Source: Promethearchaeia archaeon (GTDB taxonomy: Archaea; Asgardarchaeota; Lokiarchaeia; Sigyniarchaeales; SOKP01). From it: a DNA stretch of 64,000 nt. Location of the stretch: contig JAHQWG010000028.1 in NCBI GenBank assembly GCA_029856045.1, forward strand, positions 288,001-352,000. Reading direction: 5' to 3'. Shown here one piece after another: positions 14,081 through 32,588 of this stretch. Each line of letters begins with the position of its first letter. Position 1 is the first letter of the stretch. The position numbers and the translations under genes are program-made. Under the pieces are notes generated by a model. It worked only from the letters and a program-made list of their open reading frames with translations. It had not been told where the DNA came from and searched no databases.

Positions 14081-14632
14081 TTGAAAGATGCCACATTTAA
14101 AATTTGCATTTTTGGAGACGGAGGTGTGGGTAAAACATCTTTGACCAAAAAATATGTTACTGGCTTATTTGATCCTGATTTGAAATTTACAATTGGACTG
14201 GATTTTTATGTGAAAAACCTAGAAGTTAATGAAAAGTTAATATCTTTACAAATCTGGGACTTTGCTGGTGAATCTCGATTTAGATTTCTTTTACCCGACT
14301 ATGTAAAAGGGGCATCTGGAGCAATTTTTATGTACGATATTACTCGATACTCATCCCTAAAAAATATGGATGATTGGTTGCTTGTTTTTAATCAAGGTTT
14401 AATTAAAACTGATAAGCAAATGCCTATTATTATGGTCGGAGGAAAAGCAGATCTCATTCAGAGACGGGCAATTCAGAGTGAAGACGCTATTGAGATCGCG
14501 AAAAAGCAAAAATTTATTGGATTTATTGAATGTTCCTCTAAAACAGGAGAAAATGTAGAAAAAATATTTATTACATTAGCTAATATAATGATGAAAGAAG
14601 CAGGTTTAACCCAAGATAATATTTTGTTATAA
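14081..14632 (+). CDS. Rab-like small GTPase
   Basis: GDGGVGKT, TIG, LQIWDFAGE, YDIT, GKAD, SSKTG; no C-terminal prenylation cysteines. Confidence 0.92.
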   Translation: MKDATFKICIFGDGGVGKTSLTKKYVTGLFDPDLKFTIGLDFYVKNLEVNEKLISLQIWDFAGESRFRFLLPDYVKGASGAIFMYDITRYSSLKNMDDWLLVFNQGLIKTDKQMPIIMVGGKADLIQRRAIQSEDAIEIAKKQKFIGFIECSSKTGENVEKIFITLANIMMKEAGLTQDNILL

Positions 14633-16534: not shown

Positions 16535-16906
16535 TTAAGATAAAAATTCTTTTATAACTTCTTTGAATTCCTTGAGATTTAATGGTTTTGAGAGCGATTT
16601 ATTAAACCTGGCACTGGCAAATACGGATTCCCTATTACCTTCAACTGGAGAAGAAGAGGCGGCAATGATTGGAGTCTCTTTAAATTTATCTATTTTACGG
16701 AGTTCTTTACAAATATCAATTCCTTTTAATTTTGGAAGGTTATTATCTAAAATAATAAGATCAGGATTCTCAGATTTTATCATTTCTAAGCCTTTATCTC
16801 CCCGAGTTTCATAGAAAACTTTAATATTTGGGATTTTCTTGAAGATAGCTTTATATAATTTGATATTGGTTTCGTTATCTTCGATAATAAAAATTTTTTT
16901 TGTCAA
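16535..16906 (-). CDS. single-domain response regulator (REC)
   Basis: IEDN, LIILDNNLP, KP motifs. Confidence 0.88.
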   Translation of the reverse strand: MTKKIFIIEDNETNIKLYKAIFKKIPNIKVFYETRGDKGLEMIKSENPDLIILDNNLPKLKGIDICKELRKIDKFKETPIIAASSSPVEGNRESVFASARFNKSLSKPLNLKEFKEVIKEFLS

Positions 16907-17004
16907 TGATTTTCCCTCTTATACTAAATTATAAACTTTTTGTCAAATAATAACATAATAATAATAAATTATTTCTATTTAAATTAAATGGAGAAAAACT
17001 TCAA

Positions 17005-17931
17005 TTGAAATATATTTTTGGTCCAGTTCCATCTCGACGGTTGGGAAATTCATTAGGGGTTGATCCAATCCCTTCTAAAACTTGTAATTTTTCATGTGTT
17101 TATTGTCAATTAGGAAGAACAACAAACTTAACAAATACAAGAAAAAATTTTTTTCCAAAAGAAGATATAATTCAAGAAATGAAACTATCATTAAAAATTC
17201 ACGAAAAAACGATGGATTTTTTAACTTTTGTAGGAAGTGGAGAACCAACATTATATAAGGATTTGAAAGATCTTATTTTAGTGGCAAAACGATTGACAAA
17301 GAAACCAGTTTGTGTAATAACCAATGGAGCATTATTGTATGATCAGGAAGTGCAAAATACTCTGATGGAAGCAGATGTTATTATGCCAAGTTTAGATGCA
17401 GGAGATGAAAAAATGTTTAAAAGGATTAATCGCCCTCATCCTGATATAAAATTTAATAAAATGGTTGAAGGGTTGATTGAATTTAGAAAAAAATTTTCCG
17501 GTAAAATCTGGATGGAGATAATGTTAATGGATGAAATTAATGATGGAATCGAATCACTTAAATTGACTAAAGTAATCCTAAATCAGATTAATCCAGACCG
17601 TACATACATTAATGTACCTATAAGACCTCCTGCAGAATCTTGGGTAAAAAAGCCAAGTAAAGAATCAATTGAAAGATGTAAGGACATTTTAGGTGAAATC
17701 TATAATATCTCTTTTCCTGAAGAAGGACAATTTTTTAGTCCAAGTTCTGACTTAGAAAATGAAATTTTATTATTAATAGAAAGACATCCAATGAGGCATG
17801 AGCAAATTCTTAAAACATTTTCAAATTTCTCTGAAAAGAAAATATTAACAATCCTAAATAAATTAGAAAAGGAAGGGAAAGTAATAAAAAAGAAATATGA
17901 TGAGGTAATATTCTGGAATTTCATTCCGTAG
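17005..17931 (+). CDS. radical SAM Fe-S oxidoreductase with C-terminal wHTH-like segment
   Basis: FGPVPSRRLG.SLG, CNFSCVYC, GSGEPTL. Confidence 0.88.
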   Translation: MKYIFGPVPSRRLGNSLGVDPIPSKTCNFSCVYCQLGRTTNLTNTRKNFFPKEDIIQEMKLSLKIHEKTMDFLTFVGSGEPTLYKDLKDLILVAKRLTKKPVCVITNGALLYDQEVQNTLMEADVIMPSLDAGDEKMFKRINRPHPDIKFNKMVEGLIEFRKKFSGKIWMEIMLMDEINDGIESLKLTKVILNQINPDRTYINVPIRPPAESWVKKPSKESIERCKDILGEIYNISFPEEGQFFSPSSDLENEILLLIERHPMRHEQILKTFSNFSEKKILTILNKLEKEGKVIKKKYDEVIFWNFIP

Positions 17932-17962
17932 TTATTGAATCTGATTTTATGTATTATTATAT

Positions 17963-18601
17963 TTATTTTATTGAGTTTGTTGCGAGCATCTCATCAAGGG
18001 CTTTAGTTATTTCTTTACATGATTCAAGCATCATTTCTGTGTAATTCACAACTGTTTGCTCAGATAGATTTCCTTGTTTTTTCCCTTCTAAAATTAATTC
18101 ACAAAATCCTTGAATAGTATTAATTCCGCTTCTAATTTGCATAGTAAATGATTCTAATGGCAAGACTTCTTCCTTTTTCATATATATCTCATTTATTTCA
18201 CTAAAAAATTTCTTAAATGATTTTATATCATCTGATAAAATTTGTTTGTTTCCTAATTTTAGGAATTCCATTTCAATTCTTCGGAAATGAATTATTGGAA
18301 TTAGCGGATATGCTACATCCCGAAGAATTATCAGTGAATATAATTGTTTCCCTCCCCGAGCGCTAGGATCTTCAACTTCTATTTTACAGATCTGGGAATA
18401 AAATTGACTATAATCCAAAATGACAAATTTATTTTTAGTATTTAATGCATCTCTCAAAAGATTTTTGACAAATTGCTCTTCCTTAAGTGGAAAAGATGAA
18501 TATAAAGTTCTGGGACCCAAAATTTGATCATATTTTCCAATAATTAAAATAAATTGATATTTATCCAATCCTTCTTTAAAATTTAGGTAATCATCAGACA
18601 T
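17963..18601 (-). CDS. longin/uDENN (folliculin-like) domain fused to a degenerate HisKA (DHp) helix pair
   Basis: FILIIGKYDQILGP and DPSARGGKQLYSLII motifs; C-terminal TMQIRSGINTIQGFCELIL resembles an H-box without His; GGAGGA SD. Confidence 0.6.
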   Translation of the reverse strand: MSDDYLNFKEGLDKYQFILIIGKYDQILGPRTLYSSFPLKEEQFVKNLLRDALNTKNKFVILDYSQFYSQICKIEVEDPSARGGKQLYSLIILRDVAYPLIPIIHFRRIEMEFLKLGNKQILSDDIKSFKKFFSEINEIYMKKEEVLPLESFTMQIRSGINTIQGFCELILEGKKQGNLSEQTVVNYTEMMLESCKEITKALDEMLATNSIK

Positions 18602-18658
18602 AGCCTTCCTCCATTTTCATATTAGATTTTATTTTTATGCTGATTTCTTTGGTTATTT

Positions 18659-20965
18659 TTAATTAGTCTCACTAATTTTTTGTAATTGTTCTTCAGTTAA
18701 TGTGATTTTAGGAATTGTAAAAAAGAATGTGGTTCCTTTATCTAATTTACTTTCAAACCAAATTTCCCCTCCATGAAGATTTACTAGTCTTTTCGTTAAT
18801 GCTAAACCCAACCCTGTCCCCTGAACCTGTTTTATCTTATCACCTTCTACTCTTCCAAATTCTCTAAAGACTACATCGTAATCCTTCTTTGCAATACCAA
18901 CACCAGTATCTTTAATTTGAAATTCCCAATGATCGATTCTTTGAATACCACGAAGTGAAACATTTCCTTGCTCTGTAAATTTAAATGCATTACTTAAAAT
19001 ATTATATAATATTTGTTTGAAACGAATAGGATCAGCAGTTAAATAATCGTGTTCATCTATACCTTTAACTTTAAATTCCAAATTTTTGTTTGAATATAAT
19101 GGTTTTATTACTGCATTAATTTCTACAATAAATTCATTTAAATCAAATTTCTGCATATTTAATTTTAATTTTCCAGCTTCAATTTTTGAGATATCTAAAA
19201 TTGAATTTATTAAACTGAGTAAATGATCTCCTGCAGAATTAATATCATTTATAAAATCTTGTTGATCTACATTTAAATTACCATATGAACCATCTAATAA
19301 CAACTGTGAAAAACCTAATATGGCATTCAACGGTGTTCTTAATTCATGAGACATTGTAGCCATAAATCTTGATTTAATATCCAAGGAAGCAAGTAATTGA
19401 TCAAATAACATTTCTCGATTCTTTTCAAAATTTTTTCTATCAGTAATATCGGAAAAAAAAGATTGAATAATTATTTGATCTTCAATTCTTAATATGGTTG
19501 ACGTAACTTCTACATACAATAGTTTTCCATACTGTGCTTTTATCAATGCTTCGACTTTATTAGGAATTGATAAATCATAAATACCTTCTTCGTAATGTTT
19601 TTTAACTATATCTATAAATTCTGGGTCAAATAACTCGTATATATTGTGTGTTAATAATTCTTCTCGATTATAGTTGAATAAATTCTCTGTTTCTCTATTA
19701 GCCTTTAAAATTTCACCCTTTTGATTTAATAGAAAAATTCCCAATGGAGCTGTTTCATTAAGCGCATCTATTTCTTGTAATGTTTTCTCTAATTTTTTTA
19801 TTTCTTTCTCAGACTGTTTTTGAGCGGTAATATCTTGTATCATCAATTGTACAATATTTTTCTCCCCCATTTTAAATAAAGAAGATTGTATATTCACCCA
19901 AGCAATGTTCCCATCCTTTTTCTTAATTTGAATTTCAAGAGGCGTTGGAGCATTTCCATCATATATATCTTTATATTTTTCTTTTATATCTGAAAGACTT
20001 GATGAAGGAAGAATAGGTGTTTCATAATATCTTTTATTGATTAACTCTTCCTTTTTATATCCAAATATTTTTTCGGTAGTATTATTGCAATCAATAATCA
20101 CACCTTCCAAATTAAGTAGGATTATGGAATTTGGAGAATTTTCAAATAGATATCTGAATTTTTCTTCTGACTCTTTTTTCTTTTTTTCCGTCTTCTTGCG
20201 TTCCGTAATATCTTCGCAATTAGTTAGGAGTACATTTTTACCACCCAACTCTATTAAGTCTATATTCATTAGAGCTGTATAAATTGTGCCGTCTTTTTTT
20301 TTCAGTTTTACTTCGAAATTATAGACCTTATCAGTTTCATGCAATTTATTAAGCAATTTTTTACGTTCATTTGGATCAACATAAGTAGAAATAAGTCTAT
20401 GAGTGTTTAACTCATCTAAGGTAAAACCTGTTATTTCTTGCATTTTTTTGTTCATAGCAAGAATATTACCCTCAAGGTCAGCAATCCCAATCCCTATTGG
20501 AGAAGAATTAAATAAAAATTGATATTTTTCCTCAGATTTTTGTATCTGGGTAGTTAATTTTTCCATTTTAATCCATGTTCGATTTCTTTCAATAGCATAT
20601 TGGATTGAACGTAATAATAGATTACTATTAATCTCATTTTTAATCAAGTAATCTTGAGTTCCTGCTTTAACCGCTTCTACACCTATTTGAAAACCATCAT
20701 TTACAGTTAGAACAATAACAGGAATATTTTGAACCTTTTCACAAGTCTTAAATACAGTATTAAGTCCAAAACTATCTGGAAGGTTTATATCTAAGAGAAT
20801 TACGTCATAATTTCTATTATCAATATGGTTAAATCCTTTCTTAAGGGTATCAGCCCAAACCAAATTAAATTTTAAATTTTTAATCTTTTTTAGCATTTCT
20901 TCTATTAATCGAACATCACCAGGATTATCTTCGATTAACAGAATATTAATTAAATTATCTAACAT
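18659..20965 (-). CDS. hybrid sensor histidine kinase REC-PAS-PAS-PAS-HisKA-HATPase
   Basis: IEDNPGD/LLDINLPD REC; three PAS ending in DIT; SHELRTPL, NILSNAFKF, DTGVG, GTGLGL. Confidence 0.93.
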   Translation of the reverse strand: MLDNLINILLIEDNPGDVRLIEEMLKKIKNLKFNLVWADTLKKGFNHIDNRNYDVILLDINLPDSFGLNTVFKTCEKVQNIPVIVLTVNDGFQIGVEAVKAGTQDYLIKNEINSNLLLRSIQYAIERNRTWIKMEKLTTQIQKSEEKYQFLFNSSPIGIGIADLEGNILAMNKKMQEITGFTLDELNTHRLISTYVDPNERKKLLNKLHETDKVYNFEVKLKKKDGTIYTALMNIDLIELGGKNVLLTNCEDITERKKTEKKKKESEEKFRYLFENSPNSIILLNLEGVIIDCNNTTEKIFGYKKEELINKRYYETPILPSSSLSDIKEKYKDIYDGNAPTPLEIQIKKKDGNIAWVNIQSSLFKMGEKNIVQLMIQDITAQKQSEKEIKKLEKTLQEIDALNETAPLGIFLLNQKGEILKANRETENLFNYNREELLTHNIYELFDPEFIDIVKKHYEEGIYDLSIPNKVEALIKAQYGKLLYVEVTSTILRIEDQIIIQSFFSDITDRKNFEKNREMLFDQLLASLDIKSRFMATMSHELRTPLNAILGFSQLLLDGSYGNLNVDQQDFINDINSAGDHLLSLINSILDISKIEAGKLKLNMQKFDLNEFIVEINAVIKPLYSNKNLEFKVKGIDEHDYLTADPIRFKQILYNILSNAFKFTEQGNVSLRGIQRIDHWEFQIKDTGVGIAKKDYDVVFREFGRVEGDKIKQVQGTGLGLALTKRLVNLHGGEIWFESKLDKGTTFFFTIPKITLTEEQLQKISETN

Positions 20966-21157
20966 ATTTTTATTTTTATTTTTTGTTTAGTTTAATTAAT
21001 AATTACGATAATATGAAAAATGATAATTTTTAATGTTATAGAAATATTGGATGAGAGAGAGATGCATAGATTATTCCACTTTTTTTTACATTAGAAAATT
21101 TTTTAAATTTATTATGTGAATACCATTAGCATTTTCTTTCAATTATAATTTATCAAA

Positions 21158-21616
21158 TTAAGTTATTTCATGCCCATCAGGTGGTAATTTGACAATCGAA
21201 AACCAGAAATCTCCAATAGATTTCACCACTTTTATAAATTGTACCATACCTATAGGTTTGGAGATATAACAGTTCGCATGTAAATTGTATGTTTTTATAA
21301 TATCCTCCTGAGATTTAGAAGTTGTTAAAACTACGACCGGAATTCGCCTTAAATCTTTATCTTGCTTAATTTCAGCTAAAACCTCACGTCCGTCTTTCTT
21401 AGGTAGATTTAAATCAAGTAAAATTACATCAGGTCGTGGTGAATTATTAAATTTTCCTTTTTTATATAAAAAATCTATTGCTTCTATACCATCCAATGCT
21501 ACGTGTAATTTATTGGCAATTTTACATTCTTTAAGAGCTTCTTTTGTCAAACGCACATCTCCTGGATTATCTTCAATTAGCAAAATTTCTATCATTTTAT
21601 ATTTTTGTTTTGTCAA
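21158..21616 (-). CDS. single-domain response regulator (Rcp1-type)
   Basis: EDNPGD, LLDLNLPKKDG, VVLTTS, ANCYISKP, FWF..VKLP. Confidence 0.93.
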   Translation of the reverse strand: MTKQKYKMIEILLIEDNPGDVRLTKEALKECKIANKLHVALDGIEAIDFLYKKGKFNNSPRPDVILLDLNLPKKDGREVLAEIKQDKDLRRIPVVVLTTSKSQEDIIKTYNLHANCYISKPIGMVQFIKVVKSIGDFWFSIVKLPPDGHEIT

Positions 21617-21663
21617 AACTTTTACCTTATTTTTTTCTTTAAATTTCTTCTTTTTTCATATAA

Positions 21664-24345
21664 TTATTTTTTTATTGGAATAGTAAAATGAAATGTTGAA
21701 CCCTTTCCAACTTCTGATTCAACCCAGATTTTTCCATTATGTCTTTCTATAATTCTTTTACATAGGGCTAAACCTATTCCTGTGCCAGGATATTCAGATT
21801 TTGAATGTAAACGTTGAAAAATAATAAAAATACGATCAAAATATTCTGGATCTATGCCGATCCCGTTATCTTTTACTGAAAATTGCCAGTTTTTTTTAAT
21901 CTTTTTCGCCGAAATATGTATACGCACGGGATCTTCACTGCGGAATTTTATTGCATTACCAATCAAATTTTGAAACACTTGCAGAAGTTGTGTTTTATCT
22001 ACCATTACATTTGGTAAATAATCATAGGTTATCTTTACATCTATTTCTCTTATAATCTTATGTAGATTTAAAAGAACATCTTTTAAAACCTCTTCACAGT
22101 TAGTAAATTCAAAAGGATTACCACGAGTCTGAATTCTTGAATATTCTAATAAATTTTCTATAAGAACTTTCATATTATTTGCACCATCTACAGCATATTT
22201 AATGAACTCATTTGCATCCTCATCTAATTTATCTTTATAACGCTTTGCTAGGAGTTGGGTATAACTTGCCACCATTCTTAATGGTTCTTGTAAGTCATGA
22301 GATGCAATATAAGCAAATTGTTGTAATTCTTCATTGGAACACTTTAAATCGGCCATAATTTGTTGTAATTCTTTTTCTTTCTTCCTGCGCTCGGCAATAT
22401 CTCGGAAGATAAGGATAACACCTATAATATTACCTTTATCATTCTTTATTGGTGCGCCACTATCAGCGATCGGTATTTCCTTTCCATTTTTCGCTATTAA
22501 GATAGTATTATTCGCCAGACCGACAATAAATCCTTCTCGAAGGACTCTAGATACAGGATTTTCAACAGATTTACGCGTTTCCTCTTTAATGATATTAAAA
22601 ATATATTGTATGGGTTTTTCTATAGCTTCTTCTAACTTCCAGCCAGTCAAAGACTCGGCAATTGGATTTAAAAATGATACCTTACTTTTTATGTCAGTAG
22701 TAATTACTGCATCCCCAATACTTCTGAGTGTTGTGGAAAGCCATTCTTCACTCTCTTTTAATCTTTCTTCGGATTTTTGGAGCTTTTGAGTGCGCTTCTC
22801 TACCAATTCTTCAAGATGATCACGATATTTTCTCAATTCCTTCTCCGTTTTTTTACGCTCGGTAATGTCTATAAAAGAAGCCATCCTACCGATATCGTTC
22901 CCATCCTGATCCGTCACAACGGAAGTGGATACTTCAACAGGAAACTCCGTGCCGTCATTGCGTTGCGCAATAAATTCTTCAGTCTCGCCTTTTACCTTGT
23001 CAATAATCGTTTGCACATCAGAAAACCTCTGTACTACCTCTCTGGGAATTAATTCTCTAGCAGATTTACCGAGTAAACCTTCCTTGCTTTCATATTCAAA
23101 CATTCTCGCAAAAACTGGATTGACATACGTTATTTCTCCTTTAAGGTTCGTTATGATAACGCCGCTCACTGAAGAATCTATCGCATCGTAAGCAACGCTT
23201 AACTCTCGCTCCAACTTCTTGCGCTCGGTAATATCTTTTATAATAAATGCAATATCTATTGTCTTACCATCAGGTCCCTTTACAATAAAAGTGGTTAGTA
23301 AAATGGGAATTCTCGAACCGTCTTTTCTTATATATTCTTTTTCATACGTTTCAGGATTTCCTGTTTTTATGATCCTTTCTATTATTTTGTATTCATATTC
23401 TTCGTACTCCTCCGGAGTTATATCTTGAAATTTTTTTCTGGCTAATAATTCCTCTTTTGAATAACCCGTTAGCTCGGAAAAAGCATCATTAACATCCAAT
23501 AGCATTCCATCCAAATTAGCATAGGCTATGGCATCTTTTGAGGAGTTGAATATCCCATTGAAACGTTCTTGAACCTTTCCATTCTCCTCCTCTGCTTTCT
23601 TTCGCTCCGTAATATCCTGTCCAACTCCTTGAATCCCAATTGCCTTTCCATCAGCATCTTTTACTGCAGTAACATTCCATGAGATCAAAATCCTTTCTTT
23701 TTTACCCTTTTTCCAATAATATTGCTCAAAACCTTCTTGACTCCTATTTGGATCTATTATAACCTTCTGCCTTACGGGTTCAGCCTTTTCTAATTCATTT
23801 TTCTCAAGCATTGATCTTATATCATTACCAATCATCTCCCCTTCTTCATATCCTAATATTTTACAGGCGTATGGATTCATTAAAGTTACTCTCCACTCAT
23901 CATCGTATGCCAAAACGATGGCATTGGCATTATTTACTAGCATTTTGTAGCTATACAATTCTGCCTTTATCTTCTTACTCTCAGTAATATCTCTGAAAAC
24001 TTCAATAACTACTGGATTACCATAAAAATCTTCTACGAAAAAAGCGTCAATTCCAAAATATTTTGTTTCTTTGGTTGAAGGAAATGTTGTAATTTTTTCG
24101 AATCTCATCCTACGTTGTTCTATTGTCAAAGAGTTTTCAATAGGACAAGATTCACAAGGTTTTGAGCGCTTAAATAAAGTATTATAGCAGTTTTTTCCAA
24201 CCAAATTCTTTCCGAATTCTTTGAGAGCATTTTCATTTGCAAATAATATCTTATTCTTCTGAGAAATAACCAAAATTGGATCTTTCATATTTGAAAAGAT
24301 TAATCCTAATTCTTCTAGAGATTTTTTTAAATCTTGTGTTGCTAT
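21664..24345 (-). CDS. multi-PAS (5x) sensor histidine kinase, Cph1-type H-box; start ATA 24345 or ATG 24288
   Basis: ASHDLQEPLR, NLIGNAIKF, DNGIG, GTGIGL; five PAS/PAC units; GGTGA SD precedes the ATA at 24345. Confidence 0.92.
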   Translation of the reverse strand: MATQDLKKSLEELGLIFSNMKDPILVISQKNKILFANENALKEFGKNLVGKNCYNTLFKRSKPCESCPIENSLTIEQRRMRFEKITTFPSTKETKYFGIDAFFVEDFYGNPVVIEVFRDITESKKIKAELYSYKMLVNNANAIVLAYDDEWRVTLMNPYACKILGYEEGEMIGNDIRSMLEKNELEKAEPVRQKVIIDPNRSQEGFEQYYWKKGKKERILISWNVTAVKDADGKAIGIQGVGQDITERKKAEEENGKVQERFNGIFNSSKDAIAYANLDGMLLDVNDAFSELTGYSKEELLARKKFQDITPEEYEEYEYKIIERIIKTGNPETYEKEYIRKDGSRIPILLTTFIVKGPDGKTIDIAFIIKDITERKKLERELSVAYDAIDSSVSGVIITNLKGEITYVNPVFARMFEYESKEGLLGKSARELIPREVVQRFSDVQTIIDKVKGETEEFIAQRNDGTEFPVEVSTSVVTDQDGNDIGRMASFIDITERKKTEKELRKYRDHLEELVEKRTQKLQKSEERLKESEEWLSTTLRSIGDAVITTDIKSKVSFLNPIAESLTGWKLEEAIEKPIQYIFNIIKEETRKSVENPVSRVLREGFIVGLANNTILIAKNGKEIPIADSGAPIKNDKGNIIGVILIFRDIAERRKKEKELQQIMADLKCSNEELQQFAYIASHDLQEPLRMVASYTQLLAKRYKDKLDEDANEFIKYAVDGANNMKVLIENLLEYSRIQTRGNPFEFTNCEEVLKDVLLNLHKIIREIDVKITYDYLPNVMVDKTQLLQVFQNLIGNAIKFRSEDPVRIHISAKKIKKNWQFSVKDNGIGIDPEYFDRIFIIFQRLHSKSEYPGTGIGLALCKRIIERHNGKIWVESEVGKGSTFHFTIPIKK

Positions 24346-24363
24346 TTTTTATTTCACCTTTTT

Positions 24364-24540
24364 TTAGAACCAATAATTTCTATTAAAAAATTTATTAAAT
24401 GTATTTTGAACAATTTGTCTAAATTCATTAATATTAATGGGTTTTGAAATATATTCATTAAAATCTGCTTGTAATATACGCTTCTTATATCCTTTCATCG
24501 CAAAAGAGGTAATTCCGACATATTCTAACGAATTTTCATC
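24364..24540 (-). pseudogene. truncated response regulator (C-terminal half), paralogue of 24827-25195
   Basis: Reads VGITSFAMKGYKKRILQADFNEYISKPININEFRQIV vs IAVTSFAMKGDKERILKAGFDTYIAKPININDFRETV; N-terminal half and start are absent. Confidence 0.85.
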
Positions 24541-24586
24541 TTATTTTTATGTGATTGAATAAAATTGGCAAATTTTAATTTAACAA

Positions 24587-24653
24587 TATCTGATAACAAA
24601 TTTGTTATAAAGAATTAATAATTGTATAACTATATAAATATACTTGTTGTAAT
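24587..24653 (-). promoter_or_regulatory. promoter with two tandem TTTGTTATAACAAA-like sites and a TATA box
   Basis: tatctgataacaaa (24587-24600) + tttgttataaagaa (24601-24614); minus-strand TTTATATA at 24631-24638. Confidence 0.55.
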
Positions 24654-24826
24654 TCTTACATCATAATATCAGTTTTTTAAAAGATTTTTTATAACGATTA
24701 AGAAGTAATAATTTAATTTTTCATGAAAAAAGTTAATTCATTAGAAAATAGTGTAAAAAATTTTCTTTAAAAAGAAATATAATCTTAAAAATTGTAATAT
24801 CAGAATTTTTATATTAAAATATAAGA

Positions 24827-25195
24827 TTAGACAATAACATTTTTGACTGTTTCCCTAAAATCGTTAATATTTATTGGTTTTGCAATGTAAGTATCGAAAC
24901 CTGCTTTCAATATACGTTCTTTATCACCTTTCATCGCGAAAGACGTGACAGCAATAATTGGAATGTTTTTATATTTTTCAAGTTTACGAAGTTCTTTACA
25001 AATATCGATTCCACTCATATCTGGTAGTTGAATGTCTAAAATTATTAGGTCTGGATTATCTGACTTTAGAGATTCAAAAGCTCGGGCACCATGCGTTTCT
25101 GCTACAATTTCAATATCAAGCATTGTATTTAGGACTGCTTTAAACAATTTCATGTTTTTTTCATTATCTTCCACAAGAAATACTCGTTTTTTCAT
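24827..25195 (-). CDS. single-domain response regulator (DivK-like)
   Basis: VEDN, LIILDIQLP, AVTSFAMKGDKERIL.AGFD.YIAKPI. Confidence 0.92.
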   Translation of the reverse strand: MKKRVFLVEDNEKNMKLFKAVLNTMLDIEIVAETHGARAFESLKSDNPDLIILDIQLPDMSGIDICKELRKLEKYKNIPIIAVTSFAMKGDKERILKAGFDTYIAKPININDFRETVKNVIV

Positions 25196-25263
25196 AAAAT
25201 CTTAACTCTACATTATTGTAATAATGAAATACGCATCTCTTCATCATCAAATGTTCATATATT

Positions 25264-25396
25264 ACTATAATAACAAATTTTGATAACAAATAGATACAAA
25301 ATATTAGTGATAAACATAGTATTTAAATGTTTTGTTATAATAATGTGTTTGTTAACATTGAATTCTTTTTTACAATATTATAACAAATATTTAAAA
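25264..25396. promoter_or_regulatory. divergent promoter region with clustered ATAACAAA/TTTGTTAT sites
   Basis: ATAACAAA at 25270, 25283, 25380; TTTGTTAT at 25331; TATA-like boxes at 25320-25327 (minus) and about 25390 (plus). Confidence 0.55.
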
Positions 25397-25622
25397 ATTA
25401 AAAGAATTATATAATAATTACATATAAATAGCTGTTTGTGTGTAAAAACCGAAACATAAAAAGACAAAATAAAATTGAATAATGAGAGTTTATTAATGCA
25501 TTCAAATAGTAGGGCGGTACGGAATTTGGTTTCTTGTAAGAAAATAATCTCAATTATTTCATTAAGTTCTTTGTTTCCGAAACAATATTGAAATCCTCAT
25601 ACTAAAAATTATTTGAGAAAGA

Positions 25623-26483
25623 ATGAATAATAAGAAAACTGAAGAGATGGAAAAATATGAAAAAATGACTGGCAAACACGCAATTTGGCGTGGTGTAATA
25701 ACTGAAGGATTTAAAAAATGGCAACGAGGAGAAAAAATTTATGATAGATTTAAGGAGAGAATAGCTCTATATGTAGCTAAAGAAACTAAAGAAGAATGGC
25801 AGAATTTCATAAATAATTCAAAATATACTTCTGTTTCTAAGCTTGTGAGAGATGCAGTAAATAATTTCATTGAAAAAAAATTAAAAGTAATAGATTATAA
25901 GAATTATAGTAAAGATAATCAGCTTAGAGATCTTTCAGATATCTCACATGTTTTAAAAGAAGCATTAACTTCAATAAAAGGTTTCTCACAATTATTAATT
26001 GAAAATTATAAGGAAGAACTCAATGAGGAAATCATTTTAAAAATAAAAGAAATTTTTGATAAAAGCATCTTCCTTGAAAACAAGATTAATGAATCTTTAG
26101 AATATTCTCAAACTAAAAAATCACAATACGACATTTTATTAATTGAAGATGATATTTCAACAATAAAATTATTAACATCATTTTTTGAAAGGAAAGGTTA
26201 TAGTTGTAAAGGTGTCATAAGTGGTTCTAGAGGATTGGATGAATTGAAGAGAAATATTCCAAAAATAATTTTATTAGACATTATTTTACCTGATATTAAT
26301 GGATTTGAAGTTTGCAAAATAATAAAATCTAATAAAGAATATCAAAATATTCCCATCTTTCTATTAACTGCTGTATCAAGTCTAAAAGTTGAGCATCTTA
26401 TTAAAAAAGCAAAAGTAGATGGTTATATCTCAAAACCTTTTGATTTTTCGGATTTTAATATAATATTGGAATACTTACATTAA
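25623..26483 (+). CDS. RHH-DHp-REC protein: ribbon-helix-helix, HisKA helices with His, receiver domain; no HATPase
   Basis: ERIALYV.KETKEEWQNF...YTSVSKLVRDAVNNFI (RHH pattern); ISHVLKEALTSIKGFSQLL; IEDD/LLDIILPD/LTA/KPF. Confidence 0.75.
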   Translation: MNNKKTEEMEKYEKMTGKHAIWRGVITEGFKKWQRGEKIYDRFKERIALYVAKETKEEWQNFINNSKYTSVSKLVRDAVNNFIEKKLKVIDYKNYSKDNQLRDLSDISHVLKEALTSIKGFSQLLIENYKEELNEEIILKIKEIFDKSIFLENKINESLEYSQTKKSQYDILLIEDDISTIKLLTSFFERKGYSCKGVISGSRGLDELKRNIPKIILLDIILPDINGFEVCKIIKSNKEYQNIPIFLLTAVSSLKVEHLIKKAKVDGYISKPFDFSDFNIILEYLH

Positions 26484-26486
26484 TTT

Positions 26487-28493
26487 TTAATCTTTTAAAA
26501 TGGGAAGAGAAAAATAAAATTTACTTCCTCTATTTCTTCCTTCTGATGCCATCCAGATATTTCCCTCGTGTAAATCAATAATCTTTTTCGCAATATATAG
26601 ACCGAGCCCTGTACCCTCAATTCTAACATCCCAACCTTGACCATATCTTTCAATTTTTCCAAATTGTTTAAATAATTGATTCTTTTCCTCAGCGGAAAAC
26701 CCAATTCCATTATCTTCTATTGAGATTATGAAAAAGTTAGATTTTACTTCAGAAAAGATTTTAATTTCTCCTCCAGGAGGAGTGTAATTAATTGCGTTTA
26801 ATAATAAATTTGAAAAGACTTCATAAATCCGCTGTTTATCAAAAGTTGTAATTAAATTATTATCAATATTTAAGGAAATAGATTGGTTTCTCAGCTCTAA
26901 CACAGCTTGCATTTCTTTTAAGCAGGATTTGATCAATTTTGATAAATTTCCTTGTTTTAAAATTAATTTTAATTGTCCAGATTCTAATTGGGATGATTCT
27001 AGGAGAGAATTAACTATATTATCAAGGCGCAGACATCCTTGTTTAATTTCTTTTAAAATGGATATTGTCTTATTATCATATTTCTCTTCAAATTTTGTTA
27101 ATAAAAAGTCAGAGAACCCCTTAATTGAGACAAGAGGAGTTTTCAATTCATGGGAAGTTCTATTTAGTAAATTGGTTTTAAATTTATTTATTTCACTTAG
27201 TCGTATATTTTGCTCCTTTAAATTTTTCTGAATTTGCCATCTTTGTTCTTCAACCTTAATGGCACCACAAACTAAGGACAAAATCAAATGTTCTTGGTGT
27301 GAAATAGCAGGATTTTCTCTTTTTAAAATACAAATAAAACTATTAAATTTATCTTTAGACTTAATTAATCTTCCAAATCCTCCTTTTATGTTGTATTTAA
27401 TAATAAAAGGATCAGTTTTTGCATATTGGGTTTCATTTAGATTTATAAATGTTTGTATAATATTCTGTTTAAGCTCGAATGTTTCATTTGTAAAATAATT
27501 CTTTTTAAATTCTTCCTTATTGCAATTAAAATTATTATCATCACTAGAAATGATTTGATATATTTTATTTCCATTTTGCACCCTTTTTCGAATATATAAT
27601 ACACTTTCTGCTTTACTCAATTTCTTTACTGTTTGAATTAGAGTTTTAATATTCGATTGGAAATCTGGTGTAAACTTTAAAAAACTTAAATTTATTTCAT
27701 AAATTAAATTTTCATAAGTCTTTCTTTCATTAATATCTTGATAAGTTGTTTGAACATAAATATTATTTCCGAATTTTATTAAAGAGCTCTGGAGACTTAC
27801 CCAAATCTTTTGTCCATCTACATTTAGTAATTCAACTTCAATAGGACTAATTACTCCTCCTTTAATTATAGTTTCAAATCGATCTTTAAGTAGCAGTAAA
27901 ATTTCTTGAGGATATATATCAAGTTGGTTCTTAGTTTTACCAACAATTGTATCCTTTCTATATCCAAATAATCGTTCCGTTGCAGAGTTACAATCAATAA
28001 CTCTTCCTTTTAAATTTGCTAAAATGATGGCGTAGGGAGAATTTTCAAATAAGAATCGATATTTCGCTTCAGATTCTATTAATTTTTGCTCAGTTTCTTT
28101 ACGTTCAGTGATTTCTAACACAAATTCAACTGCTCCAATAATATTATCATTATTATCTTTCACTGGAGAAGCTTTTACCTTCCATACCCTTCCATCGGGA
28201 GTAGTTTGTTCTGCTTCATGAGATTGCCTTGTTTCAATAGTTTTCAGCACAGGGCAATTAGCACATGGTGCATTTCTCTGATGCCATATCTCATAGCAAT
28301 AGCCACCAATTAATTTATCAGTTGTTAGACTCACAGATTCAGAAGCGGCTTTGTTTGCCCACAAAATTTTTAATTCGTTATTATAATATAATATAAGCTC
28401 AGAAATACTGTTCAAAATAGGAGAGTTAAAAGTAATTTTAAGATTTCCTTCATTCTTTGAACTCGCATTATTTTCGAATTTTTGATTTTGCAT
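26487..28493 (-). CDS. sensor histidine kinase PAS-PAS-GAF-like-HisKA-HATPase
   Basis: CYE...CANCP PAS; SHELKTPL; NLLLNAINY; DNGIG; FGKIERYGQGWDVRIEGTGLGL. Confidence 0.9.
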   Translation of the reverse strand: MQNQKFENNASSKNEGNLKITFNSPILNSISELILYYNNELKILWANKAASESVSLTTDKLIGGYCYEIWHQRNAPCANCPVLKTIETRQSHEAEQTTPDGRVWKVKASPVKDNNDNIIGAVEFVLEITERKETEQKLIESEAKYRFLFENSPYAIILANLKGRVIDCNSATERLFGYRKDTIVGKTKNQLDIYPQEILLLLKDRFETIIKGGVISPIEVELLNVDGQKIWVSLQSSLIKFGNNIYVQTTYQDINERKTYENLIYEINLSFLKFTPDFQSNIKTLIQTVKKLSKAESVLYIRKRVQNGNKIYQIISSDDNNFNCNKEEFKKNYFTNETFELKQNIIQTFINLNETQYAKTDPFIIKYNIKGGFGRLIKSKDKFNSFICILKRENPAISHQEHLILSLVCGAIKVEEQRWQIQKNLKEQNIRLSEINKFKTNLLNRTSHELKTPLVSIKGFSDFLLTKFEEKYDNKTISILKEIKQGCLRLDNIVNSLLESSQLESGQLKLILKQGNLSKLIKSCLKEMQAVLELRNQSISLNIDNNLITTFDKQRIYEVFSNLLLNAINYTPPGGEIKIFSEVKSNFFIISIEDNGIGFSAEEKNQLFKQFGKIERYGQGWDVRIEGTGLGLYIAKKIIDLHEGNIWMASEGRNRGSKFYFSLPILKD

Positions 28494-28742
28494 ATTTTCT
28501 AACTAATTAATATTTATTCAAAAGAATCAAATGAATAATTTTAATAAAAATTAAACTTAGAAGGTTATTTTTGCTAATAGCATAAAGAAAATAATAAAAG
28601 AAGTATATTAAATTAAGCATCATAAAGTTAAAATTGGAAAAATAAGATTAAATTTTGTGCTAATAATAAAAAAACTTATATTATAATTTGTGATAATAAT
28701 AATCTAGATATGTTATAAATACAGTGAATCCTTCCTTTTTTA

Positions 28743-29618
28743 TTGGTGATTTCAATTTTGAATAATGAAAAAAAAAATAGTGAAATGGAACAATATGAAA
28801 AAGAGACAGGAAAATATGCTGTTTGGCGTGGTATCATAACTGAAGGATTTAAAAAGTGGAAAAGAGGAGAAAAGATTTATGATAGAGATAAGGAGAGAAT
28901 ATCACTCTATATATCGGAAGAAACTAAAAAAAAATGGCAAAATTTTATTGAAAGTAGCAAATATTCTTCAATTTCAAAATTGATAAGAGATGCTATGGAT
29001 TTTTTTATTAATGAGAAATTAAGAGGAGGTATTGATGAAAAACTTAAAAAATCAAGACCTTTTAAATCAATTACTGATATTTCCCATGATTTAAAAGAGG
29101 CTTTAACTACCATAAAAGGATTTTCACAGTTATTGCTTAATAACTATAAGGATGATATAAAAGAAGATGTATTATCAAAAATTAAGGAGATTTTTAATAA
29201 AAGTATATTTCTTGAAAATAAAATAAAAGAAGTCTTGGAAAAAGGAGAAAATAGAAAGACACAATATGACCTTTTATTAATTGAAGATGACCCATCGACT
29301 ATAAAATTATTAACCACGTTTTTTGAAAGTAAAGGTTATTCTAGTAGAGGGGTAATTAGTGGTTCTAAGGGAATAGAAGAATTAAAAGTAAATGTTCCAA
29401 AATTAATATTATTAGATATAATATTGCCAGATATAAATGGATATGATGTTTGTAAAATTATAAAATCTGATGAGAATCTTAAATATATTCCAGTTTTTTT
29501 CTTAACGGCAATTCCAAGTTCAGAAGTTGAGAAAAAAATTAAATTTGCTGGTGCAGATGGATATATTTTGAAACCATTTGATTTTAGTGATTTTGAAATT
29601 TTATATACATATCTATAA
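28743..29618 (+). CDS. RHH-DHp-REC protein, paralogue of 25623-26483
   Basis: Same architecture: TGKYAVWRGIITEGFKKW, ERISLYI..., ISHDLKEALTTIKGFSQLL, intact REC. Confidence 0.75.
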   Translation: MVISILNNEKKNSEMEQYEKETGKYAVWRGIITEGFKKWKRGEKIYDRDKERISLYISEETKKKWQNFIESSKYSSISKLIRDAMDFFINEKLRGGIDEKLKKSRPFKSITDISHDLKEALTTIKGFSQLLLNNYKDDIKEDVLSKIKEIFNKSIFLENKIKEVLEKGENRKTQYDLLLIEDDPSTIKLLTTFFESKGYSSRGVISGSKGIEELKVNVPKLILLDIILPDINGYDVCKIIKSDENLKYIPVFFLTAIPSSEVEKKIKFAGADGYILKPFDFSDFEILYTYL

Positions 29619-29765
29619 ATTTTAAAATTCTCTTTTCTTAGTTACAGAAAGCGTTTCTTTTACATAATTCCATAATCGATTTAGTAATAATCAAATTAAA
29701 TAACTAAGAAATAAAGTATTTATTCAATTTATTGGCAAAATTAACTTAAAAATTTGGTTTAATTA

Positions 29766-31073
29766 ATGGTTATAGGCATAGCATTATTTAGTTGGGATAA
29801 GAAGATGGGTCCGGTTTTAGAGATTAAACATCCTGAAAATCTTGATTTATCACAAAATTTAATTAATAAAATATATATGACTCATGCTTATAGGCAGGAA
29901 AATCAAAATGAAGAGTTAATGGAAATTAATCTGGAGAATAAAATTATACTTAGCTACTGTGATATGTCTAAAGTTGCAAAATTTGGGTATGAAATAATTA
30001 TTCTTATTGTTCATGAGAAGGAGAAAATACATCTTAAAAATTTAAAATCCAAATTATTTGAATTTGCGAGAGAAGTGTTAAATAAACCTAAAATTGAGAG
30101 ACATAAGTATTTTTTTGAAAATCTCGATTTGTTTTTTAAAGAAACATTAAAGAAAAAGATATTATTAGTTGGACGAGCAGCTACAGGAAAATCTAGTATT
30201 AAGCAAGTTATTTTTGAAGGAAAGATGCCACAGGAGTTATTATCTAATCCCCTTGAGCCAACTCGTGGTTTAACACCCTCTGTTTATTCATGGTTAGATC
30301 TGGATTTGGGTATTTTCGATTCAGCTGGTCAAGAACTGGATTATTTATTAGATGATAAAAATGAACAAACCTTAGCATTCGAAAATACTGATATTATAAT
30401 ATATATGTTTGATTACCTAACGTGGGTTGAAAATAACGAAATAATAATAAAAGATATCAGAAAAATTTCAAGAATTATTAAACAAGAGTCTTATAATGCT
30501 AGGATTATATTATTTCTACATAAAATTGACTTAATTAAGGAAGAAAATAGAGAACAAAACATAAAAAATATCCAGCGAGAAATAAAAGAACAATTGAATT
30601 TACAGATTTATTTTACAAGTCTTTATCCAAATTTAATTTATAATACTTATAATGCATTTTATGAGATTTTGAGTAATTTTTCCAAAGAGACAATTTATTT
30701 TAAAGAAATTTTGGATGAAAAAATTAAAGACAGTTCAAAATCTATGTGTTTTATAACTAATCAAAACAGTAGTATAGTTGTTCAGACAATGTCTAATGAT
30801 TTCAATTTTAAATTAATCAACCAAATTCATAGATTAATTGCTCAATTTGACCAATCATTTGAAGACATGTGTATGAATGATAATATCGATTATATGATAC
30901 TTTCAAGTTTGAAAAATTTTAATATTATTATGAAATTTCTTAACCTCTCGAATTATAATCTTAAAAATTTAATTTTAATCTCTGAAATAGCTAGTATCAA
31001 TCAATTAATAGGATTTTGTGAGGAAATTAAAAGTACTTTGAATAGATATTTTTATAAAGATATTCAACTATGA
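29766..31073 (+). CDS. Rag/Gtr-like GTPase with N-terminal longin/uDENN-like and C-terminal roadblock-like domains
   Basis: IALFSWDKKMGP N-terminus; KKILLVGRAATGKSSIKQVIF, EPTRG, DSAGQ, HKID, FTSLY. Confidence 0.8.
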   Translation: MVIGIALFSWDKKMGPVLEIKHPENLDLSQNLINKIYMTHAYRQENQNEELMEINLENKIILSYCDMSKVAKFGYEIIILIVHEKEKIHLKNLKSKLFEFAREVLNKPKIERHKYFFENLDLFFKETLKKKILLVGRAATGKSSIKQVIFEGKMPQELLSNPLEPTRGLTPSVYSWLDLDLGIFDSAGQELDYLLDDKNEQTLAFENTDIIIYMFDYLTWVENNEIIIKDIRKISRIIKQESYNARIILFLHKIDLIKEENREQNIKNIQREIKEQLNLQIYFTSLYPNLIYNTYNAFYEILSNFSKETIYFKEILDEKIKDSSKSMCFITNQNSSIVVQTMSNDFNFKLINQIHRLIAQFDQSFEDMCMNDNIDYMILSSLKNFNIIMKFLNLSNYNLKNLILISEIASINQLIGFCEEIKSTLNRYFYKDIQL

Positions 31074-31082
31074 GAATCTAAA

Positions 31083-32588
31083 ATGGGTAAGAAGATAATT
31101 TTCGTTGGACCGCCTGGAGCGGGAAAAACCACCTTAAGAAAAGTTTTTTTTGAGGGAGAATCTTCTTCAAAATTATTAGATTATGCATTAGAGCCTACAC
31201 ATGGTAAAGAATCAGTTATTCTTCAGTTAAGTGAGGATGTTGGAGTGTTTGATCTAGCAGGTCAGGAAAATACAAGGTGGTTTGAAACAGATGATAAAGA
31301 AATTTTCTACGATACAAAAATTCTTATAGTAGTTATTGATATTACAACAGACCATGAAAGAATTATAGAGTTTATTAACAGAGTTATTAAAATTCGAAAT
31401 GAATTAACACCGACTGCATTTATATATATATTAATTCATAAAATTGATTTGGTAGCACAAAAAACAATCAAAGCAATAAAATATAAAATTTCTGATGTTA
31501 TTGGTGAGGAAAAGTCTGTTAAAATTGCATTTACAAGTATTCAGAAAGTATATTTCCCCTCAACATTTTCATTGTTTATGGATATCTTAGATACATGTAT
31601 AAGTGAAAGGGTAACTCCTGAAAGAATTAATTTGAATCTACTTCAAAACACTATTGATTTTTTATATGAATTACAAAAGAGTGTTTTAATTTCGAAAGAT
31701 GATTTACAGATAAGATTAAAAGCTCCTGATGAAATGATTGATTCTATAAGCAAACTATTGAGTAATAAAGGACATATTGATGTTTCAAAAATAAATGATA
31801 GAACAATTTTTAGTTTAACTGATAAAGGTAAAAATTATTTTAAAGAAATTTTAAATAAATTTTCTTTGCAAAAATTGATTAAATTTGAGAAAGAACATTA
31901 TAAGACAGAAGCCGCTTTAGGGCCAAAAGTTCCTCCATATTTAGGTTTTTTGGTGGCTGATAAAGATGGAAAAACAATAATAAATGTAGAAATATTTGAC
32001 GGAGCTTTTGATTTAATCTTAAATGCTGAAGAGGGAGCAATGAAAACTGATTTTGAGTTAATTCCTATGTTCATTAGTGCTTTAGAAAAATTCTCGGAAG
32101 AAATAAATATAAAGGAATTAGCGGGTTTTCAATTAAAGGGAACAAATATTGAAATGCAAACTTTATCTTTTGAATTATATACAGTTACTCTTTTTATAAA
32201 TCCAGAAACAAATGTTAAATTTTTTGAATATATAATCAGAGAATGGTTTGAAAATCTTTTTGAAATACATAGAAAAGAACTTGAGTCTGCTATTAAGACT
32301 GGTTATATGACTCAAGTTTCTAAATTAAATCAAGAAGGGAGAGAATGGTTGGACAATCTTAACCAAAGATATAAAAATATGGCTATGAACTTGGAGATTT
32401 TTGATTTTGATCAAGCTAAAGTACTTTATCATCATATAGATGATATATCTGCAGATATTAATTTTAAATATACTTTAGTCTTACAAAAGATCAAAAAATT
32501 AAAAATAGATTTAATGAAGGCGATATTAGTAGAAGATTTTCAAGAAGTAAAAGAAATTGCCGGTAAGATTCGAGAAATTAAAGTTTAA
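31083..32588 (+). CDS. Rag/Gtr-like GTPase with wHTH, longin/roadblock-like domain and UVR-like C-terminal helix
   Basis: GPPGAGKT, EPTHG, DLAGQ, HKID, FTSIQ; SKLLSNKGHI...FSLTDKG wHTH end; YLGFLVADKDGKT; AILVEDFQEVKEI. Confidence 0.78.
   Translation: MGKKIIFVGPPGAGKTTLRKVFFEGESSSKLLDYALEPTHGKESVILQLSEDVGVFDLAGQENTRWFETDDKEIFYDTKILIVVIDITTDHERIIEFINRVIKIRNELTPTAFIYILIHKIDLVAQKTIKAIKYKISDVIGEEKSVKIAFTSIQKVYFPSTFSLFMDILDTCISERVTPERINLNLLQNTIDFLYELQKSVLISKDDLQIRLKAPDEMIDSISKLLSNKGHIDVSKINDRTIFSLTDKGKNYFKEILNKFSLQKLIKFEKEHYKTEAALGPKVPPYLGFLVADKDGKTIINVEIFDGAFDLILNAEEGAMKTDFELIPMFISALEKFSEEINIKELAGFQLKGTNIEMQTLSFELYTVTLFINPETNVKFFEYIIREWFENLFEIHRKELESAIKTGYMTQVSKLNQEGREWLDNLNQRYKNMAMNLEIFDFDQAKVLYHHIDDISADINFKYTLVLQKIKKLKIDLMKAILVEDFQEVKEIAGKIREIKV

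Follow-up and report, generated by a model that had tools for sequence, protein, structure and literature searches.

A longin-DHp protein encoded among two-component and Rag-like GTPase genes in a Loki-type Asgard archaeon

Do two-component and Rag-like GTPase genes that lie together in an archaeal genome belong to one signalling system? The question is raised by an island at positions 16535-32588 of a stretch of 64,000 nucleotides, hereafter the window, on contig JAHQWG010000028.1 (positions 288,001 to 352,000; assembly GCA_029856045.1) of a Loki-type Asgard archaeon with a genome of 3.34 Mb in 55 contigs. The limits of the island were set by a first-pass annotation, which read its genes as a possible nutrient- or redox-sensing circuit in which His-Asp signalling feeds a Rag-like switch with transcriptional outputs. 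The gene content was determined here from the translations of open reading frames (ORFs) and from Pfam scans, and every gene listed in that annotation was recovered at its position with the domains assigned to it. The interval itself holds all the listed genes, but it also contains a radical-SAM gene that had been omitted, and it leaves out a gene of the conserved set, the ArfR-like GTPase gene at 10598-12025.

The region is AT-rich, with a GC content of about 27%. Six of the 13 receiver (REC) domains of the whole 3.34-Mb genome fall inside these 16 kb, which is more than chance would give; the island also includes three of the 17 HATPase_c matches of the genome. Transmembrane segments were predicted in none of the island proteins, and the signalling system is thus cytoplasmic. 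As described below, a module that recurs in related genomes is present in the window as a rearranged copy, in part eroded and without one of its GTPases (RagS). Functional coupling of the two-component and GTPase systems in this module is well supported; its direction and mechanism are proposed more tentatively.

The longin-DHp protein

The protein in which the two systems meet in one chain is encoded at 17963-18601 on the minus strand and has 212 residues. It was identified with an AF2 model, Foldseek, VIA-align and sub-threshold Pfam matches. Altogether 297 homologues of the family were found, 42 of them included in the alignment from which the model was built (pLDDT 83). The model shows a longin domain at about residues 15-141, followed by a hairpin of two helices, 143-176 and 181-208. 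Foldseek placed NPRL2 of GATOR1 at the top (E 5e-5), followed closely by FLCN and yeast Npr2. When residues 15-149 were superposed with VIA-align, NPRL2 reached Z 11.8 (131 aa, root-mean-square deviation (rmsd) 3.0), FLCN Z 11.4 (126 aa, 16% identity), a Lokiarchaeota longin Z 11.0 and other longins Z 9-10. The hairpin (residues 142-212) superposes on the DHp of HK853 (residues 248-316) with Z 8.7 and rmsd 2.3. The folliculin-like longin-DHp fusion of the first-pass annotation is thus borne out by the model and by the fold matches to NPRL2, FLCN and the HK853 DHp. The C-terminal DENN domain of FLCN and SMCR8 and the NPRL2-specific domain are both missing from the protein, their place being taken by the two-helix DHp hairpin; HATPase_c was found neither by Pfam nor in the model, and the chain stops after the hairpin.

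Two motifs of the longin part are conserved among the 42 sequences. The GP motif in the first hairpin ('GKYDxxLGP') includes G29 and P30, both invariant, and A81-R82-G83 is near-invariant, with R82 itself invariant in the alignment of the family, lying in the model in the loop between strands 67-77 and 85-95 (beta4-beta5), a loop that is also spanned by the sub-threshold Folliculin match. By its motif and modelled position R82 is a candidate arginine finger. In the DHp part, alignment with the H-box of the neighbouring kinases places Met, Leu, Val or Ile (position 154) where the kinases have the His, and Gln or Lys (Q155) where they have the adjacent Glu, while R157, N161, T162, G165 and F166 are invariant. 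In kinases the residue beside the phospho-His is needed only for kinase activity, and the Thr or Asn at position H+4 only for phosphatase activity (PMC3510030). Since the H-box is kept except for the His and the adjacent acidic residue, the hairpin looks like a kinase-dead copy of the DHp of the local kinases with the receiver-facing surface retained.

A profile of the longin alone retrieved just 28 representatives among 1.84 billion proteins, variants with a PAS-longin-hairpin order included, and a comparison of the family with PDB sequence profiles gave only chance matches to REC (E 0.12). In a distant branch (P0252 and P0253, 388-391 aa; e.g. L048:683-1849 in G001) a PAS domain precedes the longin-hairpin unit; these proteins have a kinase-like layout, with the longin between sensor and DHp and no ATPase domain.

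Linkage and co-inheritance in related genomes

The longin-DHp gene was present in 18 of the 23 genera of close relatives. The survey of the phylum found it in 26 of the 68 genomes of family f1 and in two of the seven of family f2, and in none of 28 other families, while the search of the relatives detected it also in f4, which belongs to the same order as f1 and f2. Within the phylum, the gene is thus confined to families of one Asgard order. The cultured Promethearchaeum syntrophicum MK-D1 (NZ_CP042905.2, locus at about 2.079-2.100 Mb) is among the 49 species-level genomes in which the gene was found and its surroundings were mapped; the counts below are given out of the loci eligible for each comparison.

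The longin-DHp gene has a Rag or Arf GTPase gene no more than 10 kb away at 48/49 loci and a kinase gene no more than 1.5 kb away at 33/35. Rag1, the first gene of the tandem Rag-like pair of the island, was found within 10 kb at 19 of the 24 eligible loci and a receiver within the same distance at 21 of 24. An ArfR orthologue is present at most 1 kb upstream at 24 of 37 loci, and RagS follows directly downstream at 22 of 41. Genes for RHH-DHp-REC proteins were less regular, with 10/32 loci having one within 3 kb. The canonical array consists of the ArfR-like gene (divergent), longin-DHp, RagS (~293 aa), a GAF-PAS kinase (~970 aa), a PAS kinase (~710 aa), Rag1, Rag2 and a DivK-like receiver. 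Rag2 is either co-directional or inverted in the array, and a pair formed by a kinase and an RHH-DHp-REC gene is often present upstream. The gaps between co-directional genes are mostly 0-60 bp, or the genes overlap, and such arrays occur in many genera.

With the 18-23 Rag-like genes that the relatives have in 3.6-4.7 Mb, a stretch of 20 kb would be expected to contain only about 0.1. Furthermore, the linkage outlasts inversions and insertions, which speaks for selection, though related genomes are not independent samples. The first-pass annotation had considered that the genes might not be co-localised in related genomes; they clearly are, the longin-DHp gene being tied to kinases, Rag/Arf-like GTPases and the DivK-like receiver across the 49 genomes.

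The presence of longin-DHp and Rag1 is also correlated. Among the 28 genomes that encode longin-DHp, 22 have full-length Rag1 (E <1e-170) and another two a divergent copy beside the longin-DHp gene, but only two of the 20 genomes of the same family that lack longin-DHp have Rag1. In genus g2 the two genes are either both present or both absent. The incompleteness of metagenome-assembled genomes (MAGs) blurs the edges of this co-occurrence and leaves the trend unaffected. Longin-DHp and Rag1 have been gained and lost together, even within one genus, and it is the conserved linkage and this co-inheritance together that argue for functional coupling of the two systems.

In the copy of the window the ArfR-like gene is 6 kb from longin-DHp, with unrelated genes between them, and the Rag1-Rag2 pair is 11 kb from it. 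The sister genome G004 (L031) has an additional 950-aa kinase directly after longin-DHp, which is absent from this genome, and the kinase encoded intact here at 26487-28493 is represented there by no more than a remnant of 109 aa. These differences indicate recent gain and loss inside the island. The locus is in flux in this genus, while the retained genes are intact.

GTPases, kinases and receivers of the island

Rag1 (29766-31073, plus strand) encodes 435 residues with a Gtr1_RagA match at E 8e-25, and consists of an N-terminal longin-like domain, a Rag-type G domain and a C-terminal roadblock domain. Rag2 (31083-32588, plus strand), of 501 residues, begins 9 bp past the end of Rag1 and matches Gtr1_RagA at E 4e-16; its G domain is followed by a winged helix-turn-helix (wHTH)-like segment at about 205-285, a roadblock/longin-like domain at about 284-428 and a helical tail. 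With 88 and 59.6 bits, respectively, against a cut-off of 22, the two Pfam matches are well above the threshold. The AF2 model of Rag1 (pLDDT 84) superposes over residues 126-430, the G and roadblock domains, on full-length RagA/Gtr1 with Z 22.5 (270 aa), and also on LokiRagO, a solved RagA-like protein of Lokiarchaeota (PDB 8yl2), with Z 20.8. Residues 1-118 have a longin topology in the model, with W10, G15 and P23 invariant ('WDxKxG'), and were without a match in the sequence-profile search of the PDB. No similarity between this domain and the longin of the longin-DHp protein was detected with hhalign, a comparison that is uninformative because both alignments are low in diversity. For Rag2, the structural neighbours of residues ~284-428 in the ESM Atlas were Robl_LC7 and LAMTOR3 (TM 0.58-0.71 by row) and the Fuz longin, and the wHTH-like segment produced only sub-threshold matches (HTH_34, E 0.017). 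The tandem Rag-like pair with longin and roadblock domains is therefore present as annotated, by the Gtr1_RagA matches, the fold of Rag1 and the Atlas neighbours of Rag2.

The orthologues of Rag1 (15 sequences) and of Rag2 preserve the motifs G1-G5 (GKT, the switch-I Thr, DxxGQE, HKxD and TS), so that, judged from these motifs, Rag1 and Rag2 are likely active GTPases. RagS, Rag1 and Rag2 are mutually closest paralogues, and all three retain G1-G5. The ArfR-like GTPase (10598-12025, plus strand, 475 aa) matches both Gtr1_RagA (E 7e-22) and Arf (E 1.6e-21) in Pfam, and has a helical N-terminal domain, a G domain with 'WDLGGQ' and NKxD, and a tail rich in Pro and Lys. Over its full length it is 49% identical to L078:10660-12159, and it is the orthologue of the gene that stands divergent from longin-DHp in most relatives. 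A stand-alone PAS protein of 134 residues (10004-10408) is encoded directly upstream of it on the same strand. The window includes five small-GTPase genes, the two others being a 183-aa Ras-family gene (14081-14632, E 7e-44) and a 334-aa Ras/Roc-like gene (40347-41351), which is followed by an ORF of 188 aa without a Pfam match (41378-41944).

The three PAS histidine kinases of the first-pass annotation all have HisKA and HATPase domains above the Pfam cut-off. The closest to longin-DHp, a REC-PASx3-HisKA-HATPase protein of 768 residues (18659-20965, minus strand), has its stop codon 57 bp upstream of the start of longin-DHp on the same strand, and in alignment with the L078 kinases its H-box is of the same type as those of the two kinases of the canonical operon. 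The second, a multi-PAS kinase of 874 residues (PASx4-5-HisKA-HATPase; 21664-24288, minus strand; PAS_9 E 2e-66, HisKA and HATPase_c), is the partner of the receiver encoded downstream of it, as described below. The third (PASx2-HisKA-HATPase, 668 aa, 26487-28493, minus strand) lies between the two genes for RHH-DHp-REC proteins, and its DHp is 40% identical to theirs by BLAST; the convergent pair of such a kinase and an RHH-DHp-REC gene recurs in relatives. The first PAS domain of both the second and the third kinase has the cysteine pattern C-x10-P-C-x2-C-P (CYNTLFKRSKPCESCP and CYEIWHQRNAPCANCP, respectively), which may form a metal, Fe-S or redox-sensing site. The nutrient or redox sensing suggested in the first-pass annotation has no other basis than cytoplasmic PAS and GAF domains. 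A fourth sensor kinase of the window, MEDS-PAS-HisKA-HATPase, is encoded at 58288-60147 (MEDS E 1.4e-43).

Also the three stand-alone receivers and the remnant were confirmed, with intact phospho-acceptor pockets in the receivers and an alignment of the remnant to one of them. All six REC domains of the island score above the Pfam cut-off and have the acidic pair, the phospho-Asp, the Thr/Ser and the Lys. The receiver at 24827-25195 (minus strand, 122 aa, Response_reg E 1.1e-26) is DivK-like: its best solved relative is Caulobacter DivK (E 2.9e-29), the next reaching 3e-20, and its orthologues (53-68% identity) are found beside Rag1 and Rag2 in relatives, often divergent from Rag1. The remnant (24364-24498, minus strand, 44 aa) comprises only C-terminal sequence, with 34 residues 62% identical to residues 88-121 of this receiver; the sister genome retains more of the gene (L031:15335-15532). 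The receiver at 21158-21616 (minus strand, 152 aa, Response_reg E 1.4e-18) is the partner of the upstream kinase 21664-24288; its orthologues of 70% identity adjoin kinases of the same kind in L034 and L084, and the pair recurs in some relatives. For the receiver at 16535-16906 (minus strand, 123 aa, Response_reg E 1.1e-18), orthologues near the module are only sporadic.

The two probable ribbon-helix-helix (RHH)-DHp-REC proteins, both without an ATPase domain, are encoded on the plus strand at 25623-26483 (286 aa; REC E 1e-19, HisKA weak at E 2.7e-4) and 28743-29618 (291 aa; REC E 1e-19, HisKA weak at E 1.6e-5). They are 65% identical, and the second gene lies 147 bp upstream of Rag1 on the same strand. 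The DHp and REC domains of the first-pass annotation hold by Pfam, whereas its RHH domain has support only from ESM Atlas neighbours and a motif: residues 41-99 of the 25623 protein resemble the NikR, CopG and ParD RHH clusters (TM 0.44-0.57) and include a conserved strand and an 'SxSKLIR' helix, and neither Pfam nor the PDB profile search matched the N-terminal region of either protein. In three of the 12 orthologues (L083:5917-6774, L083:7027-7893 and L084:6908-7777) the DHp His is replaced by Tyr, a replacement likewise found in DivL. The family thus cannot depend on phosphotransfer at this His. The transcriptional outputs proposed in the first-pass annotation were only weakly supported, given the RHH-DHp-REC genes at 10/32 loci and the sub-threshold wHTH of Rag2. 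The palindrome TTGTTATAACAA, considered as an operator, was not clearly enriched, with three matches against 0.93 expected, a number reached by three of 100 shuffles, and with only one match in the island. The scan for sigma-70 promoters and terminators (129 sites against 105 expected) was uninformative in this AT-rich archaeal genome.

The radical-SAM gene inside the interval (17005-17931, plus strand) and the 632-aa metallophosphoesterase gene just after Rag2 (32721-34619) were rejected as members because neither recurs in other genera. Two DNA methyltransferase genes are present at 34706-35956, after the metallophosphoesterase, and 62432-63856 (N6_N4_Mtase and N6_Mtase, respectively), and the signalling genes are preceded by a pair of 2-hydroxyacyl-CoA dehydratase D-component (HGD-D) genes (7230-9707, E 5e-51 and 6e-42).

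Proposed coupling, rival explanations and known systems

The reading preferred here takes the island for a rearranged local version of a cytoplasmic module whose genes are inherited together in a single Asgard order (Promethearchaeales/Loki type), and the longin-DHp protein for the adaptor between the two-component and GTPase systems; the chance of this is put a little below even. The PAS/GAF kinases would respond to a cue inside the cell by phosphorylating the DivK-like receiver. The hairpin of longin-DHp, presumably copied from the neighbouring kinases with the H-box face kept and the His and acidic residue for kinase activity lost, would dimerise the protein and read the phosphorylation state of the receiver, by analogy with DivL reading DivK~P. 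The state of the receiver would then determine how active the arginine-finger longin is, or where it is placed, as a GTPase-activating protein (GAP) for the adjacent Rag/Arf-like GTPases; its targets would be the Rag1-Rag2 pair, RagS in genomes that have it, and perhaps ArfR. Eukaryotic longin GAP complexes are FLCN-FNIP (acting on RagC/D), NPRL2-NPRL3 of GATOR1 (RagA/B) and C9orf72-SMCR8 (Arf), and the DENN domain dimerises FLCN-FNIP. Since every eukaryotic longin GAP is a heterodimer of two longins, a second subunit may here be supplied by the N-terminal longin of Rag1, which would then stand beside the catalytic longin as FNIP, NPRL3 or C9orf72 do in their complexes. The combination of all these details, a His-less hairpin that reads the DivK-like receiver and thereby switches an arginine-finger longin GAP on Rag-like GTPases, with the Rag1 longin as an FNIP/NPRL3-like partner, is considered somewhat unlikely to hold as a whole.

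Several points weigh against the preferred reading. The GAP-type longins (Z 11-12) score only 1-2 above other longins (Z 9-10), which is a modest preference, and neither of the Pfam matches of longin-DHp, to Folliculin (E 1.7e-3) and to HisKA (E 1.4e-3), reaches the curated cut-off. That R82 may correspond to FLCN R164 or NPRL2 R78 is judged from the motif and from its place in the modelled beta4-beta5 loop. At H+4 the hairpin has Ser (S158) in family f1 but Gly in L043, the copy of MK-D1, and when the DHp profile was compared with its own genome the best non-self match, the adjacent kinase, was not significant (E 0.023). RagS, the most frequent direct neighbour of longin-DHp, has no orthologue in this genome, the best matches being Rag2 and Rag1 at 34-43%. 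The non-independence of the compared genomes, many of which are incomplete MAGs, also belongs here.

Some of the same observations suit other explanations. The polarity could be reversed, which is considered unlikely: the GTPases and the longin would stand upstream, and the nucleotide state of the GTPases, for example as a GTP or energy read-out, would be passed through longin-DHp to the kinases. The hairpin would pair with the kinase DHp or compete there, and so adjust autophosphorylation or the dephosphorylation of receivers, with the signal leaving through the DivK-like REC and the RHH-DHp-REC proteins. The tightest neighbour of longin-DHp is indeed a kinase (33/35 loci), helix 1 of the hairpin matches about half of the positions in the H-box helix of the canonical kinases, and in actinobacterial conservons the GTPase, roadblock protein and kinase interact and have interdependent activities (PMC4316618). 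The RHH-DHp-REC proteins would give such a flow an exit at the DNA, but they are present at only 10/32 loci, and the conserved GP and Arg motifs point to a longin that acts on a GTPase instead of merely sensing one; the present evidence does not discriminate between the two directions of flow.

Another explanation would leave longin-DHp as a GAP or regulator of GTPases and reduce its hairpin to a dimerisation coiled coil in place of the DENN domain, the kinases and receivers being only co-expressed in one regulon, without cross-talk between the proteins. DHp domains dimerise intrinsically, the model shows a plain two-helix hairpin, nothing is left of the His, the acidic residue or the ATPase domain, and eukaryotic longin GAPs act as dimers (PMC12290439). 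However, many polar H-box residues of helix 1 are invariant (E150, R157, N161, T162 and Q164), beyond what a coiled coil needs, the variants retain a PAS sensor before the longin-hairpin unit, and the adjacency to kinases outlasts many rearrangements. A mere coiled coil is considered as unlikely as reversed polarity. Least probable, and very unlikely in our view, is an island without joint function, in which separate systems were clustered by local duplication and hitch-hiking and the set is now decaying in this genome. The rearrangement of the present copy, its receiver remnant, the loss of RagS and the unrelated inserts (radical SAM, flavodoxin and nitroreductase) would agree with this, as would the extra kinase and the kinase remnant by which the sister genome differs and the only occasional membership of the kinase 21664/receiver 21158 pair and of RHH-DHp-REC. 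It is opposed by the operon-like arrays with overlapping genes in many genera, by the joint gain and loss of longin-DHp and Rag1 within one genus, and by the fusion of both worlds in one polypeptide.

The idea of such a coupling is not new. The first-pass annotation knew of no description of a circuit of this kind, which is incorrect for the concept: Liu et al. 2020 (bioRxiv 10.1101/2020.10.19.343400) described NPRL2-like longins fused to two-component domains and proposed an Asgard growth control centred on two-component systems, and bacterial circuits of kinases or receivers with GTPases are known from Mgl/Frz/RomR and the conservon (PMC4316618). The GP and arginine-finger motifs of Asgard longins have likewise been reported, with Rag or ArfR raised as possible clients and the question of which GTPases are targeted left to be answered (PMC12290439). 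The longin-DHp protein shares with the NPRL2-like and FLCN-SMCR8-type longins of these two papers the longin class, the GP motif, the candidate arginine finger and the two-component fusion. Unlike them, the present module provides a defined operon and matched GTPases in 49 genomes, and the part joined to the longin is recognised as a kinase-dead H-box hairpin. A description of this operon was not found in full-text literature searches.

In comparison to the eukaryotic longin GAPs, the module has in common an NPRL2/FLCN-like longin with GP and ARG motifs, neighbours of the Rag/Arf family and a second longin in the N-terminal domain of Rag1. It differs in having a DHp hairpin where these have a DENN or NPRL2 C-terminal domain, and His-Asp wiring, and in lacking the TOR kinase, Ragulator and the lysosome. 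Rag1 shares the G and roadblock architecture and the G4 motif HKxD with the Rag/Gtr heterodimers and LokiRagO (PDB 8yl2), and the tandem pair resembles that of MK-D1, which lies in an operon and is predicted to heterodimerise through the roadblock domains (PMC10933270). The extra N-terminal longin of Rag1, the wHTH-like insert and helical tail of Rag2, and the third and fourth GTPases, RagS and the ArfR-like protein, have no counterpart there.

The prokaryotic systems most similar in wiring differ in their parts. DivL of Caulobacter is a kinase without the phospho-His that reads DivK~P (PMC4211667). Also the present module combines a His-less, kinase-derived part with a single-domain receiver closest to DivK, and the proposed reading of the receiver follows this analogy; DivL, however, keeps the full (pseudo)kinase body and controls the kinase CckA, while longin-DHp has the hairpin only, with the longin as output. 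In MglA-MglB with RomR and Frz, and in the conservon CvnA-D (PMC4316618), small GTPases and regulators of the roadblock superfamily are wired to kinases and receivers in conserved gene neighbourhoods. Those systems use MglA-type GTPases and a roadblock regulator, whereas the module has Rag/Arf-type GTPases, an arginine-finger longin and the longin-DHp fusion. Membership in the conservon or MglA/MglB systems was rejected, as the GTPases are of Rag/Arf type, the array includes no stand-alone roadblock or CvnC-like (DUF742) gene and the kinases have no transmembrane segment.

As a rule, the genes of Asgard GTPases do not share operons with roadblock or longin genes, and the layout of the genome does not tell which regulator belongs to which GTPase (PMC10933270). 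The module forms an exception to this rule, with the longin encoded beside particular Rag/Arf-like GTPases together with kinases and a receiver that probably control the longin. The principle itself was proposed in 2020, and the value of the module lies in a concrete and testable pairing of regulator, GTPase and kinase, which is present also in the cultured MK-D1. It provides a defined set of proteins for asking whether the regulation of Rag GTPases by longin GAPs predates the eukaryotes and how it was controlled before TOR. If the proposed reading is true, a switch of the FLCN/GATOR1-Rag type would already be running in Asgard archaea, under a His-Asp phosphorelay instead of TOR-linked nutrient sensors.

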